In this document: one piece after another, positions 1,744 through 35,409 of the stretch
Layout: each line of letters begins with the position of its first letter
Position numbering within the stretch: the first letter of the stretch is position 1
DNA from: an uncultured Piscirickettsiaceae bacterium
GTDB lineage: Bacteria > Pseudomonadota > Gammaproteobacteria > GCF-002020875
Assembly: GCA_964344785.1 (NCBI GenBank)
Contig: CAYFOR010000002.1
Location: forward strand, 506-64,505
Direction of reading: 5' to 3'
Length of the DNA: 64,000 nucleotides
Translations under genes and position numbers: made by a program
The notes under the pieces: generated by a model
Told to the model about the DNA's origin: nothing
Databases searched by the model: none
What the model saw: only the letters and a program-made list of their open reading frames with translations

Positions 1744-4293
1744 ATGTCACAGGTAACCATTGAACAGTTTGCAGAGGTGGTAAAGATTCCGGCGGACCGT
1801 TTGCTGGAGCAGCTCTCCAATGCAGGTGTTGCCAAGAGCAGTATTGAGGATGAGATCACCGAGCAGGAAAAGATGAAACTCCTGAGCTTTCTGCGTGAAT
1901 CGCACGGTACTGGTTCATCAACGGAGTCACCGAAAGGCAAGGTAACACTCAAAAGAAAGTCGACACTGAAAGTGGGAGGAGCCACCCGTTCATCGGGAGG
2001 CAAGAGTGTCAATGTCGAAGTACGCAAGAAACGGACAATCAACAAACCGATCGACCCGGTGACATTGCAGCAGCAGACGAAGCAGGCCAAGGTGGATGAG
2101 GAGCGACAACGCGTAGAGCGTGAACGCAGGGCTGAGGAAGAGCGGTTGTTGATGGAGCAGGCCGAGCAGCGTCGTCAACATCAGTTGAAGAAGAGGGAAG
2201 AGGAAGAGCGGGCTCGAGAGGAGGCCGAACGAGCCAAGGCCGAGGCTGAACGGCTCAAGCAGGAAGAGCAGGAGCGCAAGGCCAAGGAAGAGGAAGAGAA
2301 ACGTATCCTCGATCAGCAGGCTCGCCAGGTTGCCGAAAAGGCCGCATCCAAGAAGCAGCGTGATGATGAGCGTGGCGGGCGGCGCAAGGGCAAGGACGAA
2401 AAGCAGGCAACGCGCTATGGGCGTAAGGAGCTTCATGTTGCAGCAGGGAAGTCTGCCCGTAAACAGGCGAAAAAGAGCTCAAAGAAGGCCAAGTTTGAGA
2501 TTGAGACGGAACATGGCTTTACCAAGCCGACTGCACCTGTGATTCTGGAAGTACAGATTCCGGAAACCATTACCATTGGTGACCTGGCACAGAAGATGTC
2601 CACCAAGGCCGCCGAGCTGATCAAGGTAATGATGAATCTGGGCACCATGGCGACCATCAATCAGATGATTGATCAGGATACCGCAGCACTGCTGGTTGAA
2701 GAGATGGGCCATAAGGCCGTTCTGATGAATGAGAATGCGATTGAAGAAGAGCTGATGGCCTCCGATTCGGAAGGGGGGGATGGTGAGCAGCGAGCCCCTG
2801 TAGTGACCATTATGGGGCACGTTGACCATGGAAAGACCTCTCTGCTGGACTATATCCGCAAGACCCAGGTCACCCAGGGTGAGGCAGGCGGAATCACCCA
2901 GCATATCGGTGCGTATCGAGTCTCAACCGAGAAAGGGGATATTGCCTTTCTGGATACGCCTGGACATGCCGCCTTTACTGCGATGCGGGCGCGTGGTGCC
3001 AAGGTAACCGATATCGTCATTCTGGTGGTGGCAGCAGATGATGGTGTGATGCCTCAGACGGAAGAGGCGATTCAGCATGCCAAGGCGGCCGAGGTGCCGC
3101 TGGTGGTTGCAGTCAACAAGATTGACAAGCCGGAGTCTGACCCGGACCGGGTCAAGAATGAGCTCTCCAATAGAGAGGTGGTTCCGGAAGAGTGGGGTGG
3201 AGACGTCATGTTTGCGAATGTCTCGGCTCATACCGGTGAAGGTGTGGATGAGTTGCTGGATGCTGTATTGCTTCAGGCAGAGGTGCTGGAACTGACTGCT
3301 GCGGTCAAGGCGCCTGCAAAAGGAAATGTAGTGGAGTCACGAGTGGATCGTGGGCGTGGTGCAGTGGCTACCGTCATGGTACAGAGCGGTACGCTGCACA
3401 AGGGAGATATTCTGCTGGCAGGACGTGAATATGGTCGTGTGCGAGCAATGATCAATGAGTATGGAGAACAGCTTGATGTGGCTGGGCCATCCACCCCGGT
3501 AGAGATCCTGGGGCTGTCTGGTGTGCCAGAGGCCGGAGAAGAGGCGATTGTGGTACCGAATGAGCGCAAGGCACGTGAAGTGGCCAACTTCCGCCAAGGC
3601 AAATATCGCGATGTCCGTCTTGCCCAGCAGAAGCAGGCGAGTCTGGATCGAATGTTCGAGCAGATGCAGGATGGTGACGTTCACTCGGTCAATATTCTGA
3701 TCAAGGCCGATGTGCATGGCTCTGCAGAGGCACTGCGGGATGCATTGCTCAAGCTGGGTACCGAAGAGGTGAAGGTCAACGTGGTGTCATCAGGCGTGGG
3801 AGGGATCAACGAATCGGATGCCAACCTGGCAATTGCATCCAATGCAGTGGTGATCGGCTTCAATGTCCGCGCCGATGCTTCAGCCAAAAAGCTGATTGAG
3901 TCTGAAGAGATCGACCTGCACTACTACAGTGTGATCTATGATGCGATTGAAGAGGTCAAACGTGCGATGGAAGGGATGCTTGCGCCTGAACTCAAGGAAG
4001 AGATCATCGGCTTGGCTGAAGTGCGTGATGTATTCCGTTCACCCAAATTCGGTGCTATCGCGGGCTGTATGGTCTCTGAAGGAGTGGTCAAGCGTAACAA
4101 TCCGATTCGTGTATTGCGTGACAATGTGGTGATCTATGAGGGTGAGCTGGAGTCACTGCGGCGCTTCAAGGATGATGTGAATGAGGTTCGTTCAGGAACC
4201 GAGTGTGGTATTGGTGTGAAGAACTATAACGACGTTCGCGAAGGGGATCAGATTGAGGTCTTCGAGCGGATCGAGGTTTCGCGGTCACTTTGA
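1744..4293 (+). CDS. infB: translation initiation factor IF-2
   Basis: 849-aa ORF; Lys/Glu/Arg-rich N-terminal region; GTPase motifs [18 protein letters not shown]. Confidence 0.95.
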
Positions 4294-5909: not shown

Positions 5910-6179
5910 ATGTCTGTATCTACAGAACAGAAAAGAGAGATTGTTGAGAAATATCAGCGTAGTGACAATGATACCGGGTCTCCCGAGGTTCAGGTTGCAC
6001 TGTTGACGGCCCGTATTCAGGATCTGACGGGCCACTTTAAGGAACACAAGAAGGATCACCACTCCCGCCAGGGACTGTTGAAGATGGTGAACCAGCGTCG
6101 CAAACTACTCGATTATCTGAAGCGGGAGGATGGGAGTCGTTACTCTCAGCTGATTGCCGAGCTCGGTCTGCGTCGTTAA
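5910..6179 (+). CDS. rpsO: 30S ribosomal protein S15
   Basis: 89-aa [39 protein letters not shown]..; conserved position before pnp. Confidence 0.95.
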
Positions 6180-6196
6180 TCATAAAATCCGATTGT

Positions 6197-6378
6197 AACG
6201 GTTCAGCTCACCTCTGAAATCTACCATCTCTGCGTTCGAAAATGGTCATGTATACCGATAACACTACGGGCAGTGCTCGTGGTCATCTTGGGATACATTT
6301 ACATTTTCTGCCTTGGGCTGGTGGAGTTTAGAGGCAATCTGAATCAGTTACAGGTACCGGTAAATAGTTACATCCGAT
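6197..6378 (+). repeat. MITE-like mosaic intergenic repeat, type A copy 1 (rpsO-pnp spacer)
   Basis: Left end aacggttcagctcacctctgaaatc; core ..gaaaatggtcat..cagtgctcg..; right ggtggagtttagagg plus tail module caatctgaatcagttacaggtaccggtaaatagttac; shares modules with copies near 15.5, 23.3, 29.1, 31.6 and 35.3 kb. Confidence 0.8.
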
Positions 6379-6442
6379 TTATCATCATTGTTATCGATTC
6401 AGGAAAAAGTCCTGGGTTGCTTACTGTCAGGGAAAAATAAAA

Positions 6443-8533: not shown

Positions 8534-8560
8534 AAGGCGGAACGACACTGTTTTTCCGGG

Positions 8561-8591
8561 AAAAAAGGGGCCAGCGGTGGCCCCTTTTTTC
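8561..8591 (+). terminator. rho-independent terminator after pnp
   Basis: GC-rich hairpin AAAAAAGGGGCCAgcggTGGCCCCTTTTTT (stem 8567-8573 / 8578-8584) followed by a T-run; symmetric, could act bidirectionally. Confidence 0.65.
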
Positions 8592-8782
8592 TTGTAGAAT
8601 TTATCGCTGTTCAGCCCACTCCTGAACCCTTCTATTCGGCGTAGTGTGATCTCATGAATTTGGTTCAGGATGGTTGTTTGCGAGTGTAACCTCACACTTT
8701 ATCTGTTCTGTGTTGAAATGTTCTGCAATGAGTTATAGGGGAATCCAGACAGCTACATGAACGTGCTGATAGATGGCTTTGT

Positions 8783-13289: not shown

Positions 13290-14426
<1,137 letters not shown>

Positions 14427-14454
14427 TGATACGGTGTAAAGAATTGAGCGGAGA

Positions 14455-15531
14455 TTGTACATGAATGGTCTGGTGGTTGGGGTACCATCTGAAGTACGCG
14501 CATTTGAAGGGCGGGTAGCGCTGACACCACAGGCGGTATCATCGCTAAAGGCGGCGGGTAGTGATGTACTGATCCAACAGGGGGCAGGGCTTCTGAGTGG
14601 ATTTGATGATCACCAGTATCATGATGCTGGCGCCGAAATGGTCTCGGATGCGTTTTCGCTGTATCAGAGAGCAGAGCTGATTGTTAAGGTCAAGGAGCCC
14701 CAACGCAGTGAGATCCCGTTGCTGAGGAGAGGGCAGCTGCTCTTCTGTTATCTGCACCTTGCAGCAGACCTGGAGTTGATGGCGTTATTGGCAGAGACTG
14801 GATTGACGGCCATTGCCTTTGAGACGGTTGAAGTGGACGGCCGGCTACCGTTGTTGGCACCGATGAGCGCCATTGCCGGAAAACTGTCTGTACAGATTGG
14901 AACCCGGCTTCTGCATCAGCCACAAGGAGGAAAGGGGTTATTGCTGGGAGGGGTTGATGGTGTTGAGCCTGGGCGGGTAGTGATACTGGGGGGTGGCGTG
15001 GCAGGAGAGGCGGCACTCTCTGTTGCATCCGGTATTGGTGCGGAAGTCACACTGCTTGAGCGGACAGAGAGGCGAATCGAAATATTGAAACAGCGTTATC
15101 CGGGCATTGAGGGGGTGTTGTCATCCGGGGCCACGATCTCCGATCATGCAGCCGGAGCGGACCTGTTGATTGGAGCGGTACTGCTCAAGGGCGCGCGTGC
15201 CCCCAAGCTGGTCAGCAAGAAGGTGGTCGCGCAGATGGGGGCAGGCAGTGTGGTGATTGACATCTCGGTTGATCAGGGCGGTTGTATCGAAACCATTCGG
15301 CCAACGACCTATCAATCTCCAACCTATACCGTAGACGGCGTCACCCATTTTGGGGTCACCAACATGCCTGGCGCTGTACCAAGGACGGCTTCTCAGGCAC
15401 TTTCAGCAGCCATTCTTCCCTGGGTGATCAAATTATCTCAAGACAAATGGAGAGAGATGTCAGTGCTGACTGAGGCGATCAATATTGATCAGGGGGAAGT
15501 GGTCTATCCAGCGCTCAAGACCATGATCTGA
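14455..15531 (+). CDS. ald: alanine dehydrogenase (AlaDH/PNT family)
   Basis: 358-aa ORF; ..RVALTP..VKVKEP..FCYLHLAAD..AIAFETVE..LPLLAPMS..VVILGGGVAG..VIDISVDQGGC..TNMPGAVPRT motifs typical of AlaDH. Confidence 0.8.
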   Translation: MYMNGLVVGVPSEVRAFEGRVALTPQAVSSLKAAGSDVLIQQGAGLLSGFDDHQYHDAGAEMVSDAFSLYQRAELIVKVKEPQRSEIPLLRRGQLLFCYLHLAADLELMALLAETGLTAIAFETVEVDGRLPLLAPMSAIAGKLSVQIGTRLLHQPQGGKGLLLGGVDGVEPGRVVILGGGVAGEAALSVASGIGAEVTLLERTERRIEILKQRYPGIEGVLSSGATISDHAAGADLLIGAVLLKGARAPKLVSKKVVAQMGAGSVVIDISVDQGGCIETIRPTTYQSPTYTVDGVTHFGVTNMPGAVPRTASQALSAAILPWVIKLSQDKWREMSVLTEAINIDQGEVVYPALKTMI

Positions 15532-15534
15532 AGT

Positions 15535-15672
15535 AACTGTTCAGCTCACCCCTGAAATCCGCCATTTCCTGCCTTGAAGCGCAGCAATGCCTTTAGGCGG
15601 TCACTGACGAATTTCAGGAGCAATCTGAATCAATTACGGGTACTGGTGAATAGTTACGATCTGAATCGCTGT
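15535..15672 (+). repeat. MITE-like repeat, type A copy 2 (short form lacking internal core)
   Basis: aactgttcagctcacccctgaaatc begins 1 nt after the ald TGA; tail caatctgaatcaattacgggtactggtgaatagttac. Confidence 0.8.
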
Positions 15673-22046: not shown

Positions 22047-22634
22047 ATGGTCATTCCACTGCCGCTTGTACTGGGTTCCAGCTCACCGTTCAGAAAAGAG
22101 TTGCTTACTCGTTTGAAACTGCCGTTTGAGACCTGCTCGCCGGATATCGATGAGACGGCATTGGACGGTGAAACGCCACAGCAGCTGGTGGAACGGTTAT
22201 CGATTGAGAAAGCCCGGGCCGTTGCCGGGCAGTTTCCGGCGCATCTGGTGATCGGTTCCGATCAGGTGGCTGTCAATGAGGGTCGTATCCTGGGCAAGCC
22301 GGGTAGCTTTGAGCGTGCGGTAGAGCAGTTGTCCGCAGCATCGGGCAGGAAGGTGCAGTTCTTTACCGGCCTGACCCTGCTCAATAGTGCCAATGGTCAG
22401 TATCAGAGTGAAGTGGTCCCGTTTGCAGTGCACTTCAGGCAGTTGAGTCAGAATCGGATTGAGCGATACCTGCAGGCTGAGCAGCCCTATAACTGTGCGG
22501 GCAGCTTCAAGTCCGAGGGGTTGGGGATTACCCTTTTCGATCGACTGGAGGGGGATGATCCCAGTGCATTGATGGGATTGCCACTCATCCGTCTGGTCAG
22601 GATGCTGGAGCGGGAAGGGGTAGAATTTCCCTGA
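22047..22634 (+). CDS. maf: Maf-like nucleoside-triphosphate pyrophosphatase
   Basis: 195 aa; LVLGSSSPFRKELL..GSDQV Maf signature. Confidence 0.85.
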   Translation: MVIPLPLVLGSSSPFRKELLTRLKLPFETCSPDIDETALDGETPQQLVERLSIEKARAVAGQFPAHLVIGSDQVAVNEGRILGKPGSFERAVEQLSAASGRKVQFFTGLTLLNSANGQYQSEVVPFAVHFRQLSQNRIERYLQAEQPYNCAGSFKSEGLGITLFDRLEGDDPSALMGLPLIRLVRMLEREGVEFP

Positions 22635-23277
22635 TCTTCAGGATTGAGTCGATGCAGGCGAGTGGTGCGAATTGTTGCAGTCGCTCCGCTTCATGGACAC
22701 CATAGCAGACTCCAATCGAGGCCATATTGGCCTGCTGGGCCATCTCCAGATCGTATTCGGTATCCCCAATCATGACCGCATTCTCTGCGTCGATCTGCAG
22801 CGCTTCCAGGATCTCAAACAGCATCTGGGGATGGGGTTTGGATCGGGTCTCATCTGCGCAGCGTGTGATGTCAAAGGTATCGTTCAAGCCGATTTCATTC
22901 AGTGTGTGGTCCAGACCACGTCGACTCTTGCCGGTTGCTACCGCTATTTTGACGCCGCCACGGCGTAGTTGATCAAGCAGTTCCATGACTCCGGGGAAGA
23001 GGTCTTCACGCACCTGTTTGACCTGCAGGAAATGGCTTCGGTAGTGGTCGGCGAGCGTATGGGCAAAAGCCGCATCACTCCCCGGGTAGAGCATGGAGCA
23101 GGCCTCCAAAAGACCCAGGCCAATCACATTGCTGACCTCGTTGTCACTGCGTGGTGCCAGCCCCATGTCCGATATTGCACCATGCATACAACGCACAATC
23201 AAATGCACGGAGTCCATTAGTGTTCCATCCCAGTCAAAGATGACCAATTTGATGGGGGCATTCATAAGTTGCGACAT
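22597..23277 (-). CDS. HAD-superfamily phosphatase (phosphoglycolate phosphatase-like)
   Basis: Motif I VIFDWDGTLMDS, motif III K, motif IV GDTEYD; the 3' end overlaps the maf end convergently. Confidence 0.7.
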   Translation of the reverse strand: MSQLMNAPIKLVIFDWDGTLMDSVHLIVRCMHGAISDMGLAPRSDNEVSNVIGLGLLEACSMLYPGSDAAFAHTLADHYRSHFLQVKQVREDLFPGVMELLDQLRRGGVKIAVATGKSRRGLDHTLNEIGLNDTFDITRCADETRSKPHPQMLFEILEALQIDAENAVMIGDTEYDLEMAQQANMASIGVCYGVHEAERLQQFAPLACIDSILKIREILPLPAPAS

Positions 23278-23280
23278 GAG

Positions 23281-23421
23281 TAACTGTTCATTGGTACTCG
23301 TAACTGATTCAGATTGCCTCTGAAATTCGTCAGATCAAGGCGTGAAATGTGAGTTTATACGTATAAATGTCCATTTCACAACACAGAGCTGGTGGATTTC
23401 AGAGGTGAGCTGAACAGTTGC
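23281..23421 (-). repeat. MITE-like repeat, type A copy 3 (inverted orientation), overlapping the rluC 3' end
   Basis: Tail module (revcomp) at 23281-23325, core caaggcgtgaaa..tttcacaacacaga, end ggtggatttcagaggtgagctgaacagtt; the end encodes the last 14 codons and stop of rluC. Confidence 0.8.
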
Positions 23422-24374
23422 CGACATGATTCACTCTCCTGGAGTCGTTGAAGCACCTGCTGCAATGGTTCTGGGAGCGGGGCCTCCAGCCGTACCGTTG
23501 TCTCATCCTTGGGGTGGGGAAAGGCGATTTGGTGTGCATGCAGGAAGAGTCGCCTCAGGCCCATGTCGGCCATCTGCCGGTTGAACCGGTCATCACCATA
23601 TCGCTTGTCGCCAGCCAGTGGATGGTGAATATGGGCACCATGAACCCGGATCTGGTGCGTACGACCGGTGATGATTTCCACCTCGGCCAGGGTTGCATGC
23701 TCGCATGAGAGTCGTGGCATGAAGTGGCTCTCTGCCTCTTTTCCCTTTGTGCTCACCTGTACCAGACGCTCTCCAGACTTCAGTACACTTTTTTGCAGGG
23801 GGGCCGTCACATGCTTCCCTTTTCTCATCCTCCCCTTGAGCAGGGCGAGATATTGCTTCGTCACCCGCTGTTCACGGATCGACTGGTGCAGAGCGCGCAG
23901 TGCACCACGTCGCTTGGCGATCAACAGCAATCCGGAGGTTGCACGATCCAGCCGATGGACCAGTTCATAGCCGCCGGCCTCTTCACGAAGTGCCCGAAAA
24001 GACTCGATGACACCAAACTGGATGCCGCTGCCTCCATGAACGGCGATGCCGGAAGGTTTGTTGATCGCAATCATGTGCCGATCTTCATAAATAATCGCAG
24101 ACTCCAGCCACTCGACCGATTCGACTTTGGGGGGGGGCTTCTGTTCAGTCGTCCGAATGGGTGGGATTCTCACCTGATCTCCAGACTGCAGGCGATAGGT
24201 CTGTTTGACGCGTTTCTTGTTGACCCTTACCTCGCCTTTGCGCAGGATACGGTAGATGCGGCTTCTGGGAACCCCTTTCAAGGCAGTGATGAGAAAATTA
24301 TCAATCCTCTGCCCTTCCTGCTCGTTGGAGATCTCTACCAAACGTACCTGGTTGGAAGTGGGAAGGTGATCCAT
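23376..24374 (-). CDS. rluC: 23S rRNA pseudouridine synthase RluC
   Basis: 332 aa; S4 domain plus RluA-family catalytic motif HRLDRATSGLLLIAK; C-terminal QLFSSPLKSTSSVL* is read from the repeat end. Confidence 0.85.
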   Translation of the reverse strand: MDHLPTSNQVRLVEISNEQEGQRIDNFLITALKGVPRSRIYRILRKGEVRVNKKRVKQTYRLQSGDQVRIPPIRTTEQKPPPKVESVEWLESAIIYEDRHMIAINKPSGIAVHGGSGIQFGVIESFRALREEAGGYELVHRLDRATSGLLLIAKRRGALRALHQSIREQRVTKQYLALLKGRMRKGKHVTAPLQKSVLKSGERLVQVSTKGKEAESHFMPRLSCEHATLAEVEIITGRTHQIRVHGAHIHHPLAGDKRYGDDRFNRQMADMGLRRLFLHAHQIAFPHPKDETTVRLEAPLPEPLQQVLQRLQESESCRQLFSSPLKSTSSVL

Positions 24375-27911: not shown

Positions 27912-29054
27912 ATGATGAAACTCATGAATAGAAAATGGGCGTTAACCGCTTCTTTGTTGGTGATGATCGGTATCTTCGTATTGGGAGGTATCAGTGCCCG
28001 TCTGACGATAGCGCAGGAGGAGCCAGAGATGGGTGATCAATCCAGGGTTGAACGAGCCATTTTTGCCGGTGGGTGCTTCTGGTGTATGGAGCCACCATTC
28101 GAAAAACTTGATGGTGTAGTCGATGTAGTTTCCGGTTTCACAGGTGGTGACACGGTGGACCCAACCTACAAGCAGGTAGTGACCGGTACTACAGGCCATC
28201 TGGAGGCGGTCGAGGTGACCTATGACCCGGCCAGGATCGATTATGGAACGCTGGTGGATACTTTCTGGCGACAGATTGACCCAACGGATGATGGTGGTTC
28301 CTTTGTGGATCGGGGAAGCCACTATCGTAGTGCAATCTTCTATCTGAATGCGGAACAGCAGGCGGCTGCAGAGCAGTCCAAAAGCGAGTTGGGACAGTCC
28401 GGGATGTTTGAGCAGCCCATTGTGACCGCCATTCTTCCAGCCAAACCCTTTTATCGGGCGGAGGATTATCATCAGAACTTCTACAAAACCAACCCGTTAC
28501 ACTATAAACGTTATCGTGCAGGATCTGGCCGGGATCAGTTTATTCAGTCGACCTGGATCAGTATGAAATCTGACCAGACTGATACCCCGAAGAAATATGT
28601 AAAGCCATCGGATGATGAACTCAAACGGCGCTTGACGCCACTGCAGTTTGAAGTGACGCAGGAGGAGGGAACCGAGCGTGCCTTCAACAATATCTACTGG
28701 GATAACAAGGCGGATGGGATCTATGTTGATATCGTTTCAGGAGAGCCGCTCTTCAGTTCCACCGACAAGTACGATTCTGGTACCGGCTGGCCGAGCTTCA
28801 CCCGTCCAATCGTAAAGGATGTACTCACCGAGAAAGAGGATCGTCGCCTCTGGTTCTCGGTACGAACAGAGGTGCGCAGTAAATTTGCGGACTCCCATCT
28901 TGGGCATGTCTTCGATGACGGCCCTGCACCGACCGGGCTACGTTACTGTATCAACTCCGCATCACTGCGCTTCATACCCAAAGAGGATCTGAAAAGTGAA
29001 GGGTATGAAGAGTTCATCAAGTTATTTGATCGCAACGACCCGGATCACCCCTGA
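27912..29054 (+). CDS. msrAB: secreted/periplasmic peptide methionine sulfoxide reductase MsrA-MsrB fusion
   Basis: Signal/anchor peptide; MsrA catalytic GCFWC; MsrB GTGWPSF and RYCINSASL; the stop lies inside the repeat end cacccctgaaa. Confidence 0.9.
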
Positions 29055-29183
29055 AACTCACCATCTCTGCGTTCGAAAATGGTCATGTATACGTATATAT
29101 GACCATTTTCTGCCTTGATCTGGTGAGTTTCAGAGGCAATCCGACCCGTTACGACAGTGTACTAAAACTACATTTGATTCAGA
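29045..29183 (+). repeat. MITE-like repeat, type A copy 4, overlapping the msrAB stop
   Basis: cacccctgaaactcaccatctctgcg; perfect hairpin cgaaaatggtcatgtatacgtatatatgaccattttctg; ggtgagtttcagaggcaat. Confidence 0.8.
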
Positions 29184-31535: not shown

Positions 31536-31730
31536 AGGAGCCTGGTGACAATTAAGTTGGACAGATTGCGCAGGATTTCGTTTCGTATTCAAGGCGTGAA
31601 AATGGGCGCATAACACTACGAGCAGTGCTCGAGGTCACCTTAGGGTATTCATTATATGTAACCGTTTTCACAACACAGAAGACGAAACGAAAGACAAGCA
31701 AGGTGTTCGAGTTATTTTTGCCAGGTTCCT
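31536..31730. repeat. MITE-like mosaic repeat, type B copy 2, directly upstream of the precursor gene
   Basis: aggagcctggtgacaa../..ttatttttgccaggttcct ends; core gacagattgcgcagg..caaggcgtgaaa..cactacgagcagtgctcg..tttcacaacacagaagacga. Confidence 0.8.
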
Positions 31731-31760
31731 TGGTCAATAAAATTCAATGGAGTAATAAAC

Positions 31761-32099
31761 ATGGACAAGAAGATCTCAACGCTGGCATTGGCAACTTCCG
31801 TTGCATTGGGAATGGGTGCATCGAGTACTACTTTTGCAGCAGATAACCCATTCGCCATCTCCGAGTTGCCGGCTGGTTATCAGTTGGCCAACAACATGGA
31901 AGGCAAATGTGGTGAAGGTAAGTGTGGTGGCTCCAAGCCCAAGGCCAGTGAAGAAGGCAAGTGCGGTGAAGGCAAGTGTGGCGGTTCCAAGCCCAAGGCG
32001 AGCGAAGGCAAATGTGGTGAAGGTAAGTGTGGTGGCGCCAAACCCAAGGCCAGTGAAGGCAAGTGCGGTGAAGGAAAATGTGGTGGTGGAAAGGTATAA
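31761..32099 (+). CDS. secreted Cys-rich repeat precursor peptide (bufferin-like, EGKCG-repeat class)
   Basis: 112 aa: Sec signal peptide (..GASSTTFA|ADNP), then 3.5 tandem units EGKCGEGKCGG[S/A]KPKAS (8 Cys); stop is 3 nt before the DUF692 gene. Confidence 0.8.
   Translation: MDKKISTLALATSVALGMGASSTTFAADNPFAISELPAGYQLANNMEGKCGEGKCGGSKPKASEEGKCGEGKCGGSKPKASEGKCGEGKCGGAKPKASEGKCGEGKCGGGKV
31899..32096 (+). repeat. 48-51-nt coding tandem repeat (x3.5) inside the precursor gene
   Basis: gaaggcaa(a/g)tg(t/c)ggtgaagg(t/c/a)aa(g/a)tgtgg(t/c)gg(c/t)(t/g)ccaa(g/a)cccaaggc(c/g)ag(t/c)ga units with mostly synonymous differences. Confidence 0.85.
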
Positions 32100-32102
32100 G
32101 CG

Positions 32103-32960
32103 ATGAAGCAACCCAACCCACCTATTTCCGGTGTTGGCCTGGGGCTCCGGCGTGATCTTCTGGACACGCTGGAGGTGCAGATCCCCGGTTCCATCGAGTT
32201 TATGGAGGCTGCTCCTGAAAACTGGATGGGGCTTGGGGGCAGGCTGCGCGACTCACTGGAACGGGTTGTGGAGCAGGTCCCGTTGATCTGTCATGGACTT
32301 TCACTCAATCTTGGAGGTTACAGTCCACTCGATCAACAATTTCTAAAAGAGCTCCGTCAGTTCCTGGATCTCTATCAGATTCCGGTCTACAGCGAGCACC
32401 TCAGCTACTGTGGAGACCATGGACATCTTTATGACCTGATGCCGATCCCGTTTACAGAAGAGGCGGTGCGCTATGTCGTCGAACGTATTCGGCAGGTTGA
32501 AGATGCCTTGGAGCGTCCACTCGTATTGGAGAATATCTCCTACTACGCCGCACCGGGACAACAGATGAGTGAACTGGAATTTATCCAGGCGGTGCTGGAA
32601 GAGTCCGGGTGTGAGATGTTGCTGGATGTAAATAATATTTATGTCAACAGTGTCAATCACCGTTACGACCCGGCACAGTTTCTAAGTGAGCTCAGTGACC
32701 GGAAGATAAGTTATATCCATGTGGCCGGGCACTACCATGAGGCTGAAGATCTGATCGTGGATACTCATGGGGCTGCCGTGGAAGATCCGGTGTGGGCGTT
32801 GCTGCAGCAGGCCTACGGACAGTTTGGTGCAGTGCCTACGCTGTTGGAACGTGATTTCAATATTCCGGCCCTGGAAGAGTTGCTGGCAGAGATGGCACAG
32901 ATTCGCCAATACCAGCAGGCAGTGAACAATAGTGCAGAGGAGTTTGCGGATGTTGCATGA
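32103..32960 (+). CDS. DUF692-family protein (MbnB/BufB-like peptide-modifying enzyme)
   Basis: 285 aa; GVGLGLRRDLL..EFMEAAPENWMG..LICHGLSLNLGG..YSEHLSYCG..LVLENISYY matches the DUF692 signature. Confidence 0.85.
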   Translation: MKQPNPPISGVGLGLRRDLLDTLEVQIPGSIEFMEAAPENWMGLGGRLRDSLERVVEQVPLICHGLSLNLGGYSPLDQQFLKELRQFLDLYQIPVYSEHLSYCGDHGHLYDLMPIPFTEEAVRYVVERIRQVEDALERPLVLENISYYAAPGQQMSELEFIQAVLEESGCEMLLDVNNIYVNSVNHRYDPAQFLSELSDRKISYIHVAGHYHEAEDLIVDTHGAAVEDPVWALLQQAYGQFGAVPTLLERDFNIPALEELLAEMAQIRQYQQAVNNSAEEFADVA

Positions 32961-34964: not shown

Positions 34965-35272
34965 GAAAAGAGGTGGTGATGATGGCGCGTCTCTACCTCT
35001 CAGAGGAGCATGCCCAGCTGAAATCGCTGCTGCAACTGCTACACGACCAGGAACAGGTGCGTGGCGTTACGGTTTTCCGTGGTATTGCCGGTTATGGCGA
35101 TAATGGAGAGGTTCATGGAACAGGGCTGGTCGACCTTTCGTTCAATCTGCCGCTGGTCATTGAATTCTTTGATTCACCGGAAAAGGTGGAGCGGGTATTG
35201 AACGATTTGGCGGAGAGAATGGATTCTGCTCATATGGTCTACTGGACCGCTGAGCAGATGGTTAAGGATTGA
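34961..35272 (+). CDS. DUF190-family protein (crcB-associated)
   Basis: ATGA overlap with the crcB stop; 103 aa ..ARLYLSE..VRGVTVFRGIAGYG.. typical DUF190; its TGA abuts a repeat copy. Confidence 0.7.
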   Translation: MRKEVVMMARLYLSEEHAQLKSLLQLLHDQEQVRGVTVFRGIAGYGDNGEVHGTGLVDLSFNLPLVIEFFDSPEKVERVLNDLAERMDSAHMVYWTAEQMVKD

Positions 35273-35409
35273 AACTGTTCAGTTCACCCCTGAAATCCGC
35301 CATCTCTGCGTTGTGAAATGGTCATTTATACGTATAAACTCACTCACGCCTTGATCTGACGAATTTGAAGGGCAATTTGAATCAGTTACTGGTTCTGGTG
35401 AGTAATTAC
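35273..35409 (+). repeat. MITE-like repeat, type A copy 5 (upstream of serS)
   Basis: aactgttcagttcacccctgaaatc..ttgtgaaatggtcat..cgtataaa..gaatttgaagggcaatttgaatcagttactggttctggtgagtaattac. Confidence 0.8.

Follow-up and report, generated by a model that had tools for sequence, protein, structure and literature searches.

When a mobile repeat lies across the end of a gene, does the gene keep its own C-terminus or does it take one from the repeat? The question is raised by rluC in a 64,000-nucleotide stretch of DNA from an uncultured Piscirickettsiaceae bacterium, which is analysed here at its full length and is called the window below. We are highly confident that the repeat is a MITE which duplicates 8 bp of its target, and that two of its insertions have exchanged the ends of RluC and MsrAB for tails that the element encodes. 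The identities of the four genes discussed most (rluC, msrAB, ald and a DUF190 gene) are confirmed by Pfam.

Structurally the repeat is a MITE in every respect. An alignment of the copies gives its ends as GTAAC...GTTAC, which are imperfect terminal inverted repeats; the canonical termini are GTAACTATTCAGC...GCTGAATAGTTAC, with an extra inner arm of about 32 nt, and inverted arms are present in the copies of the window too. The copy at rluC folds into a single long imperfect hairpin (-46.8 kcal/mol, z -4.0). The element has no coding capacity for a transposase, and the canonical copy contains stops in all six frames.

One genome per species was scanned with a pattern of 20 nt taken from the left arm, giving at least 120 loci (labelled L below) in about 20 MAGs. 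The loci listed come nearly all from Gammaproteobacteria MAGs: Sedimenticola, 'Gammaproteobacteria bacterium' S140_32, S141_57, S012_118 and Dive96, 'Piscirickettsiaceae' and Methylococcales. A profile built from the window copies has at least 178 non-overlapping matches in the window and these loci together, and at least 79 of the matches are full-length. The canonical length is about 152 nt, and most of the 79 full-length copies are exactly that long, while the sizes span 121-187 nt. The target-site duplication is 8 bp: among the 77 copies with readable flanks, 63 agree at seven or more positions (47 copies at 8/8 and 16 at 7/8). Together, the duplications and the copy number indicate that the family has been mobile. 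Many contigs of k=151 assemblies stop within a MITE copy, as is expected for a repeat of such length, so that the family probably breaks assemblies. The Rfam 15 covariance models, run over the window, gave no match to the MITE at gathering score and reported one tRNA alone. A literature search found no paper on this family, which appears to be undescribed so far.

Five full copies are found in the window (nhmmer E 1e-25 to 1e-41), with boundaries fixed by the duplications, the duplicated 8-mers directly adjoining both ends. A search for such duplications had been proposed in the preliminary description of this DNA, and four of the five copies have them, at 8/8, 8/8, 8/8 and 7/8. Copy A (6195..6371, forward strand, 177 nt) is a long variant with a central 36-nt insert and is flanked by ATCCGATT at 6187-6194 and 6372-6379 (8/8). 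It was missing from the earlier list of copies; it sits between rpsO (stop 6177-6179) and pnp (start 6443), 15 nt past the rpsO stop, and its duplicated target begins 7 nt past that stop. Copy B (15533..15657, forward, 125 nt) has its central palindrome deleted and is flanked by GATCTGAA at 15525-15532 and 15658-15665 (8/8). Copy C (23280..23421, reverse strand, 142 nt, E 1.8e-41) has its left end, GCAACTGTTCAGC..., toward rluC, and its duplicate TCATGTCG stands on the reverse strand at 23422..23429 (left) and 23272..23279 (right), identical at 8/8 positions. Copy D (29032..29171, forward, 140 nt), at 76% identity to the family consensus the most decayed of the five, lies between ATTTGATC at 29024-29031 and ATTTGATT at 29172-29179 (7/8). 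Copy E (35271..35409, forward, 139 nt) has no target-site duplication (3/8).

A sixth, strongly decayed copy is detected with the family profile at about 8607..8765 on the forward strand (nhmmer E 1.9e-5), at a distance of some 70 nt from the pnp stop, the terminator hairpin of pnp lying just before it. That hairpin, at 8560-8597, is a textbook intrinsic terminator (GGGGCCAGCGGTGGCCCC then TTTTTT) and directly precedes the copy.

The copies of the window are more diverged than those elsewhere: their identity to the family consensus is 76-89%, the median in other loci being 94.5%, and only two of five start with GTAAC against 71 of 76. They are old, decaying insertions and probably immobile.

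As it stands, rluC (23376..24374, reverse strand; Pfam S4 and PseudoU_synth_2) encodes 332 aa, and its product ends in ...QESESCRQLFSSPLKSTSSVL before the stop. The preliminary description had assigned the last 14 codons and the stop to the end of the element, and the translation bears this out: the 46 nt at 23376..23421 (reverse strand) are the left end of copy C, and they supply the third base of an Arg codon, 14 codons (QLFSSPLKSTSSVL) and TGA. Compared with the left ends of copies B and E, these 46 nt have an identity of 92-93%, and the 11-mer AACTGTTCAGC occurs six times at up to one mismatch, where 1.08 occurrences are expected.

The intact duplication allows the empty site to be rebuilt. 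Removal of the copies at rluC and msrAB gives ...TCATGTCGCAACTTATGA... and ...ATTTGATYCAGAATAA..., respectively, and excision of copy C with one duplicate restores ...CAGGAGAGTGAATCATGTCGCAACTTATGAATG..., from which RluC would end in ...LQESESCRNL, an ancestral form of 320 aa. This end matches those of the close orthologues (...ESCR[NSHTQ][FL]). The 20 closest orthologues compared (64-72% identity) end in ...[CH][RHK]xx, 17 of the 20 in ...SCRx[FL] or ...PCRx[FL]; examples are ...ESCRNF, ...ESCRSF, ...ESCRHF, ...PCHTL and ...GCRTL. In alignment, the closest orthologues, of 318-330 aa, cover about 94-95% of the query, and the 14-residue tail is absent from all 20. This comparison with element-free orthologues had been set beforehand as the check, and its outcome favours remodelling.

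A second comparison comes from a relative (locus L121, contig CAYFOU010000003.1) with a syntenic rluC-HAD-maf-yceD order and msrAB nearby, in which no element is found at the rluC-HAD junction. Its uninterrupted junction, GAATCATGCCGCAGCTTCTGA, is colinear with the reconstructed site of the window, GAATCATGTCGCAACTTATGA. Since the end restored by excision fits both the orthologues and this relative, the tail QLFSSPLKSTSSVL with its stop is element-encoded. The insertion has cut off the final Asn-Leu and the stop, and reading now goes on for 14 codons into the element up to a TGA of the element itself.

The length of the tail depends on a single base. Copy C starts with GCAAC and not with the canonical GTAAC, a T-to-C difference at element base 2 that turns TAA into CAA. 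Only because this terminal TAA is lost are there 14 codons and not none; with the canonical GTAAC the frame would stop at once, at ...ESCR.

The same insertion affects the neighbouring gene, which encodes a HAD hydrolase (Pfam) at 22597-23277 on the reverse strand. Its start ATG, assigned by ORF logic and the gene call of one relative, lies in the right copy of TCATGTCG. In that relative, L121, the call starts at the corresponding ATG, within the last 16 nt of rluC and behind AGGAGA. In the window, the ATG in the right duplicate is now without a Shine-Dalgarno sequence, while the left duplicate (23422..23429) still encodes Ser-Cys-(Arg) of rluC and also contains a duplicated ATG with the old Shine-Dalgarno AGGAGA upstream. 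At this duplicated ATG a putative new ORF of 30 codons opens (MSATVQLTSEIHQLCVVKWTFIRINSHFTP and a stop; 23335..23427, reverse strand), which otherwise consists entirely of element sequence. From the sequence and L121 it would seem that the insertion struck the 16-nt overlap of rluC and HAD, that the 8-bp duplication preserved the rluC codons together with a copy of the HAD ATG, and that this ATG was parted from its Shine-Dalgarno sequence. The duplication may thus have spared both overlapping genes and yet uncoupled them.

In msrAB (27912-29054, forward strand; Pfam and translation) the stop had been placed inside the end of a copy near 29.05 kb, and this is again what the translation gives. 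The part from 29032 to 29054 belongs to copy D and contributes two bases of an Arg codon, the residues NDPDHP and TGA. Excising copy D with one duplicate restores an MsrAB that ends in ...KLFD(S/P)E. Here, the last two codons and the stop have been swapped for seven codons and a TGA of the element. The frame used is the 7-codon one, whose canonical N[CY]SAHP before the stop has decayed to NDPDHP. Orthologues of MsrAB end in ...LF followed by two to four variable residues, and owing to this variation they corroborate the reconstruction weakly. Taken together, reconstruction and translation support a remodelling of the MsrAB end by copy D.

For ald and the DUF190 gene, the element had been described as beginning 1-3 nt after the TGA. 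This is correct for ald, which ends in ...KTMI with its TGA at 15529-15531, inside the left duplicate GATCTGAA; copy B begins 1 nt after that TGA. Because the stop lies inside the duplicated target, the Ald protein is unchanged. It does not hold for the DUF190 gene, which ends in ...MVKD with TGA at 35270-35272: this TGA consists of one flanking T and bases 1-2 of copy E (GA, where the canonical element has GT), which places the start of the element within the stop itself. If the canonical GT stood there, reading would continue to ...DCNCSVHP and a stop, and a single T-to-A change at element base 2 would be the simplest origin of the present stop. As copy E lacks a duplication, the native end of the DUF190 gene and the history of the copy are not reconstructable. 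The tails of DUF190 orthologues are variable, with 5-11 residues after a conserved H[IV]VxW, and the protein of the window is of normal length. The proposal that insertions have remodelled C-termini therefore stands for RluC and MsrAB, on the duplications, the reconstructed empty sites, the orthologue ends and L121, and fails for Ald.

How such tails can arise repeatedly is suggested by the element itself. A non-autonomous DNA transposon with inverted repeats starting in GTAAC would duplicate 8 bp, favouring A/T on both sides of the 8-mer, and bring its own stops into any frame. Read forward, the canonical element gives tails of 1, 7 or 28 codons and, in reverse, of 1, 11 or 17, the one-codon tail being the TAA within the terminal GTAAC. 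With stops in three frames both ways, an insertion near a gene end truncates or extends the protein only slightly, and this presumably explains why such insertions survive. The N[CY]SAHP tail is found at two further loci, where ...ELPDG has become ...ELPGNCSAHP (L039) and ...KTRQ has become ...KTRRNYSAHP (L104), each followed by a stop. Altered gene ends are also seen in L018, L053, L037 and L094.

The position of the copies allows for other explanations. For each of the five full copies of the window, the duplicated target falls between -10 and +7 nt of a stop (of rpsO, ald, rluC, msrAB and the DUF190 gene), as would be expected if the transposition machinery actively targeted stops, TGA specifically, or gene 3' ends, so that placement reflected site recognition and not survival. 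For the family we reconstructed 80 insertion sites with duplications and used as the null all positions except those deep within ORFs of 80 aa or more. The duplication overlaps a stop at 12.5% of sites against 4.7% in the null, and lies 1-10 nt downstream of one at 12.5% against 4.6%, each about 2.7-fold, where the gene calls are crude (greedy longest ORFs) and the fold values approximate. Within 20 nt of a stop we find 32 of the 80 sites, against 25% of tolerated positions (p 0.003). The bias towards stop codons is thus real across the family but modest: roughly every second copy has no stop within 50 nt, and duplications inside the last 30 nt of genes are not enriched over the null among the 80 sites. 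A preference for TGA-containing targets, suggested in the preliminary description, has to be rejected, as TGA occurs in 18.8% of the 80 targets against 16.4% of the background and the offset between stop and duplication differs at every site, with no fixed register. The orientation relative to the upstream gene, which the window had suggested to be biased (5/5), is 19:13 in the family and not significant (p 0.38). The sole sequence signal is A/T at the flanks: the context is WW-N8-WW, with 78-88% A/T at positions -2, -1, +1 and +2, while TTA and TAA are enriched in the targets. Further, compared with the null of tolerated positions, insertion sites have more A/T and less structure, which argues against targeting of hairpins or terminators, and the bias is stronger in the old copies of the window than in the young copies elsewhere, as selection predicts. 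The suggested preference for gene 3' ends accordingly remains as a modest excess at and just after stops, which an AT preference combined with purifying selection fits equally well. These two probably make up the bias, and they explain it at least as well as active targeting, which we regard as unlikely.

It could also be that the element is kept at gene ends for its use to the host, for example as a terminator or promoter or as a hairpin for mRNA stabilisation or processing, and that the tails are a by-product. It does form a stable long hairpin and sits just after stops in many genomes, and proposals of this sort exist for other bacterial MITEs (PMC5896051, PMC2229807). However, a consensus scan in and around copies C and E gave no sigma-70-like promoter and no intrinsic terminator, Rfam has no match, and the decay of the window copies, with their divergence from the consensus and internal deletions, speaks against constraint, while the duplications, and the bursts of nearly identical copies in other genomes, are what a selfish transposon shows. 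We find this explanation improbable. That the resemblance between tails and repeat ends is coincidental, or that the tails are native and the repeats derived from a gene end, is refuted by the duplications, which bracket the entire element, by the orthologue ends (no orthologue of RluC or MsrAB has the tail) and by the empty site of L121; with the same ends found in more than 170 copies in unrelated contexts, we give it practically no weight.

Some targets recur. The same 8-mer, GTTGCCGG, has been struck three times independently in other genomes (L039, L020, L046), and further insertions lie in or beside GCCGGGTTAATAACCCGGC-like palindromes (L119, L038, L093, L032). These sites may represent a local hot spot in another short repeat. 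Targeting of hairpins, terminators or REP sequences, a candidate prompted by the recurring GTTGCCGG targets, was rejected as a general rule on the AT-richness and low structure of the sites.

Next, we consider what may have moved the element. About 0.9 Mb of loci yielded neither a cognate autonomous element nor a transposase with MITE ends, a BLAST of plasmid records for such an element was empty, and an all-against-all clustering of 1,521 ORFs from the loci gave no multi-copy protein. Several candidates were discarded. Stray GTAACTRTTCAG ends outside the MITE matches lead to other MITE subfamilies or remnants and not to a parent, and a 480-aa ORF in L026 and L077 has neither a Pfam match nor flanking inverted repeats. 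Locus L043 looked like an insertion sequence with a MITE left end, but a metagenome scan and a comparison of the ends show an IS30-like element (GCGGATTCAAC...TTGAATCCGCG) inserted in a MITE copy at base 31. The site is at 3017-3197 of L043 (WFXP01000042.1), with relatives L124, L135 and L136; the transposase of the IS30-like element starts MKSYTQLTQEERYQIEAL, and the MITE sequence at the insertion point, ...GAAATCCGCC, resembles the end of the IS30-like element itself. We take this case to recall the way in which IS30-type elements target sequences that resemble their own inverted repeats.

The termini recall the IS66 family, which has 8-bp direct repeats and terminal inverted repeats of 20-30 bp starting GTAAGCG (PMC11946415, citing TnCentral). 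The MITE shares the 8-bp duplication and GTAA termini; however, its ends read GTAACT(A/G)TTCAGC, so that the first four bases alone match, and no IS66-type transposase was found in the approximately 0.9 Mb of loci.

Small mobile repeats at gene ends are known from other bacteria. The Correia elements of Neisseria and the Rickettsia palindromic elements (RPEs) are small palindromic mobile repeats found at or inside gene ends, where they can add coding sequence; the former duplicate TA, and the latter enter genes in-frame. To our knowledge neither makes 8-bp duplications, and we know of no sequence similarity between them and the present family. REP and BIME sequences are palindromes of 20-40 nt that are mobilised by RAYT without target-site duplication, and with a length of about 150 nt and 8-bp duplications the present element is not one of them.

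Documented parallels are the QMITE1 and QMITE2 elements of Coxiella burnetii, which are non-autonomous, bounded by inverted repeats and reach 1-50 bp into the 3' ends of functional genes, among them ubiB, pntAA, mutT, nagZ, ogt, recN and ruvB (PMC5896051). In the Dugway strain QMITE2 supplies the last 33 residues of EnhC, while in RSA 493 an indel brings a stop into place immediately ahead of that insert; QMITE2 copies are said to have unique direct repeats, with no defined 8-bp duplication given (PMC5896051). The likeness is that of an inverted-repeat element which overlaps gene 3' ends and supplies C-terminal residues. In contrast, sequence family and host lineage are different, and here the ancestral C-termini can be exactly reconstructed from the duplications. 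The enterobacterial RU-1 and RU-2 repeats (ERIC/IRU-type) are also fused to gene 3' ends, with the normal stop removed and a tail added (Delihas 2007, PMC2759123; Delihas 2008, PMC2229807), as in the amidase ECA3499 of E. carotovora, with an RU-encoded tail of about 35 residues (PMC2759123; PMC2229807). There too a point mutation within the element sets the length of the tail, as the T-to-C and T-to-A differences at base 2 do here. The sequences and hosts differ, however, and insertion duplications were not used there to reconstruct empty sites.

The window also contains a second repeat family, at 14268-14428 and 31540-31732, whose two copies are 87-95% identical over about 175 nt and have inverted ends of their own (AGGAGCCTGGCAAAAAC...). 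The two are found upstream of ald and of a Cys/Gly-repeat gene, and no target-site duplication is seen at either. The centre of this family is related, in reversed orientation, to the core of the MITE, and one copy has the same optional 36-nt insert as copy A; judged by these shared parts, the two families look like chimeric MITEs with a common core module. The insert, of about 36 nt (ACACTACGnGCAGTGCTCGnGGTCA..., containing a small palindrome), is found in the central palindrome of some MITE copies (window 6258-6295 and 31610-31647, and L095) and defines the 177-nt long variant, which recurs in other genomes. Nearby, a 112-aa ORF (31761-32099) contains EGKCGEGKCGG(S/A)KPKASE repeats, encoded by four tandem units, each 51-54 nt long, at 31899-32109, and we take it to resemble low-complexity Cys/Gly-rich periplasmic proteins.

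Several MITE subfamilies have a common 13-nt terminus and different interiors. In a Sedimenticola MAG (L068, JBEVXT010000272.1) two inverted 247-nt variants with the same GTAACTATTCAGC ends, at 2618-2864 and 3534-3780, have interiors with GTAGGAGCGAACTTGTTCGCGA-type palindromes and flank a 154-aa ORF, presumably YbaK-like.

The C-termini annotated for RluC, MsrAB and several proteins of related MAGs are thus transposon scars and not native ends, which matters to annotation, to the alignment of orthologues and to whatever is inferred from such tails. Replacement of gene ends by a MITE is a documented process in bacteria, with the QMITEs of Coxiella and the enterobacterial RU/ERIC repeats as analogues, and what is known of MITE behaviour is unchanged by these results; the family itself appears to be undescribed, and it is abundant in MAGs of vent and sediment Gammaproteobacteria. 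The locus offers a worked example, in which intact duplications and an element-free syntenic relative let the swap of a stop and last residues be followed stepwise: how long the tail is depends on a single changed base in the element end, and where two genes overlap at stop and start, an 8-bp duplication can leave both of them spared by an insertion.

A more speculative reading, which we hold to be rather doubtful, is that the family, or its transposase, truly prefers bases at or just after stops as a 'safe haven', and that its six-frame stops, with a TAA in both GTAAC termini, are an adaptation that keeps insertions at gene ends harmless. If so, Sedimenticola-like sulfur oxidisers would regularly gain new C-terminal peptides from the element (N[CY]SAHP before a stop and QLFSSPLK..., which recur), as well as overlapping gene pairs that have become uncoupled.
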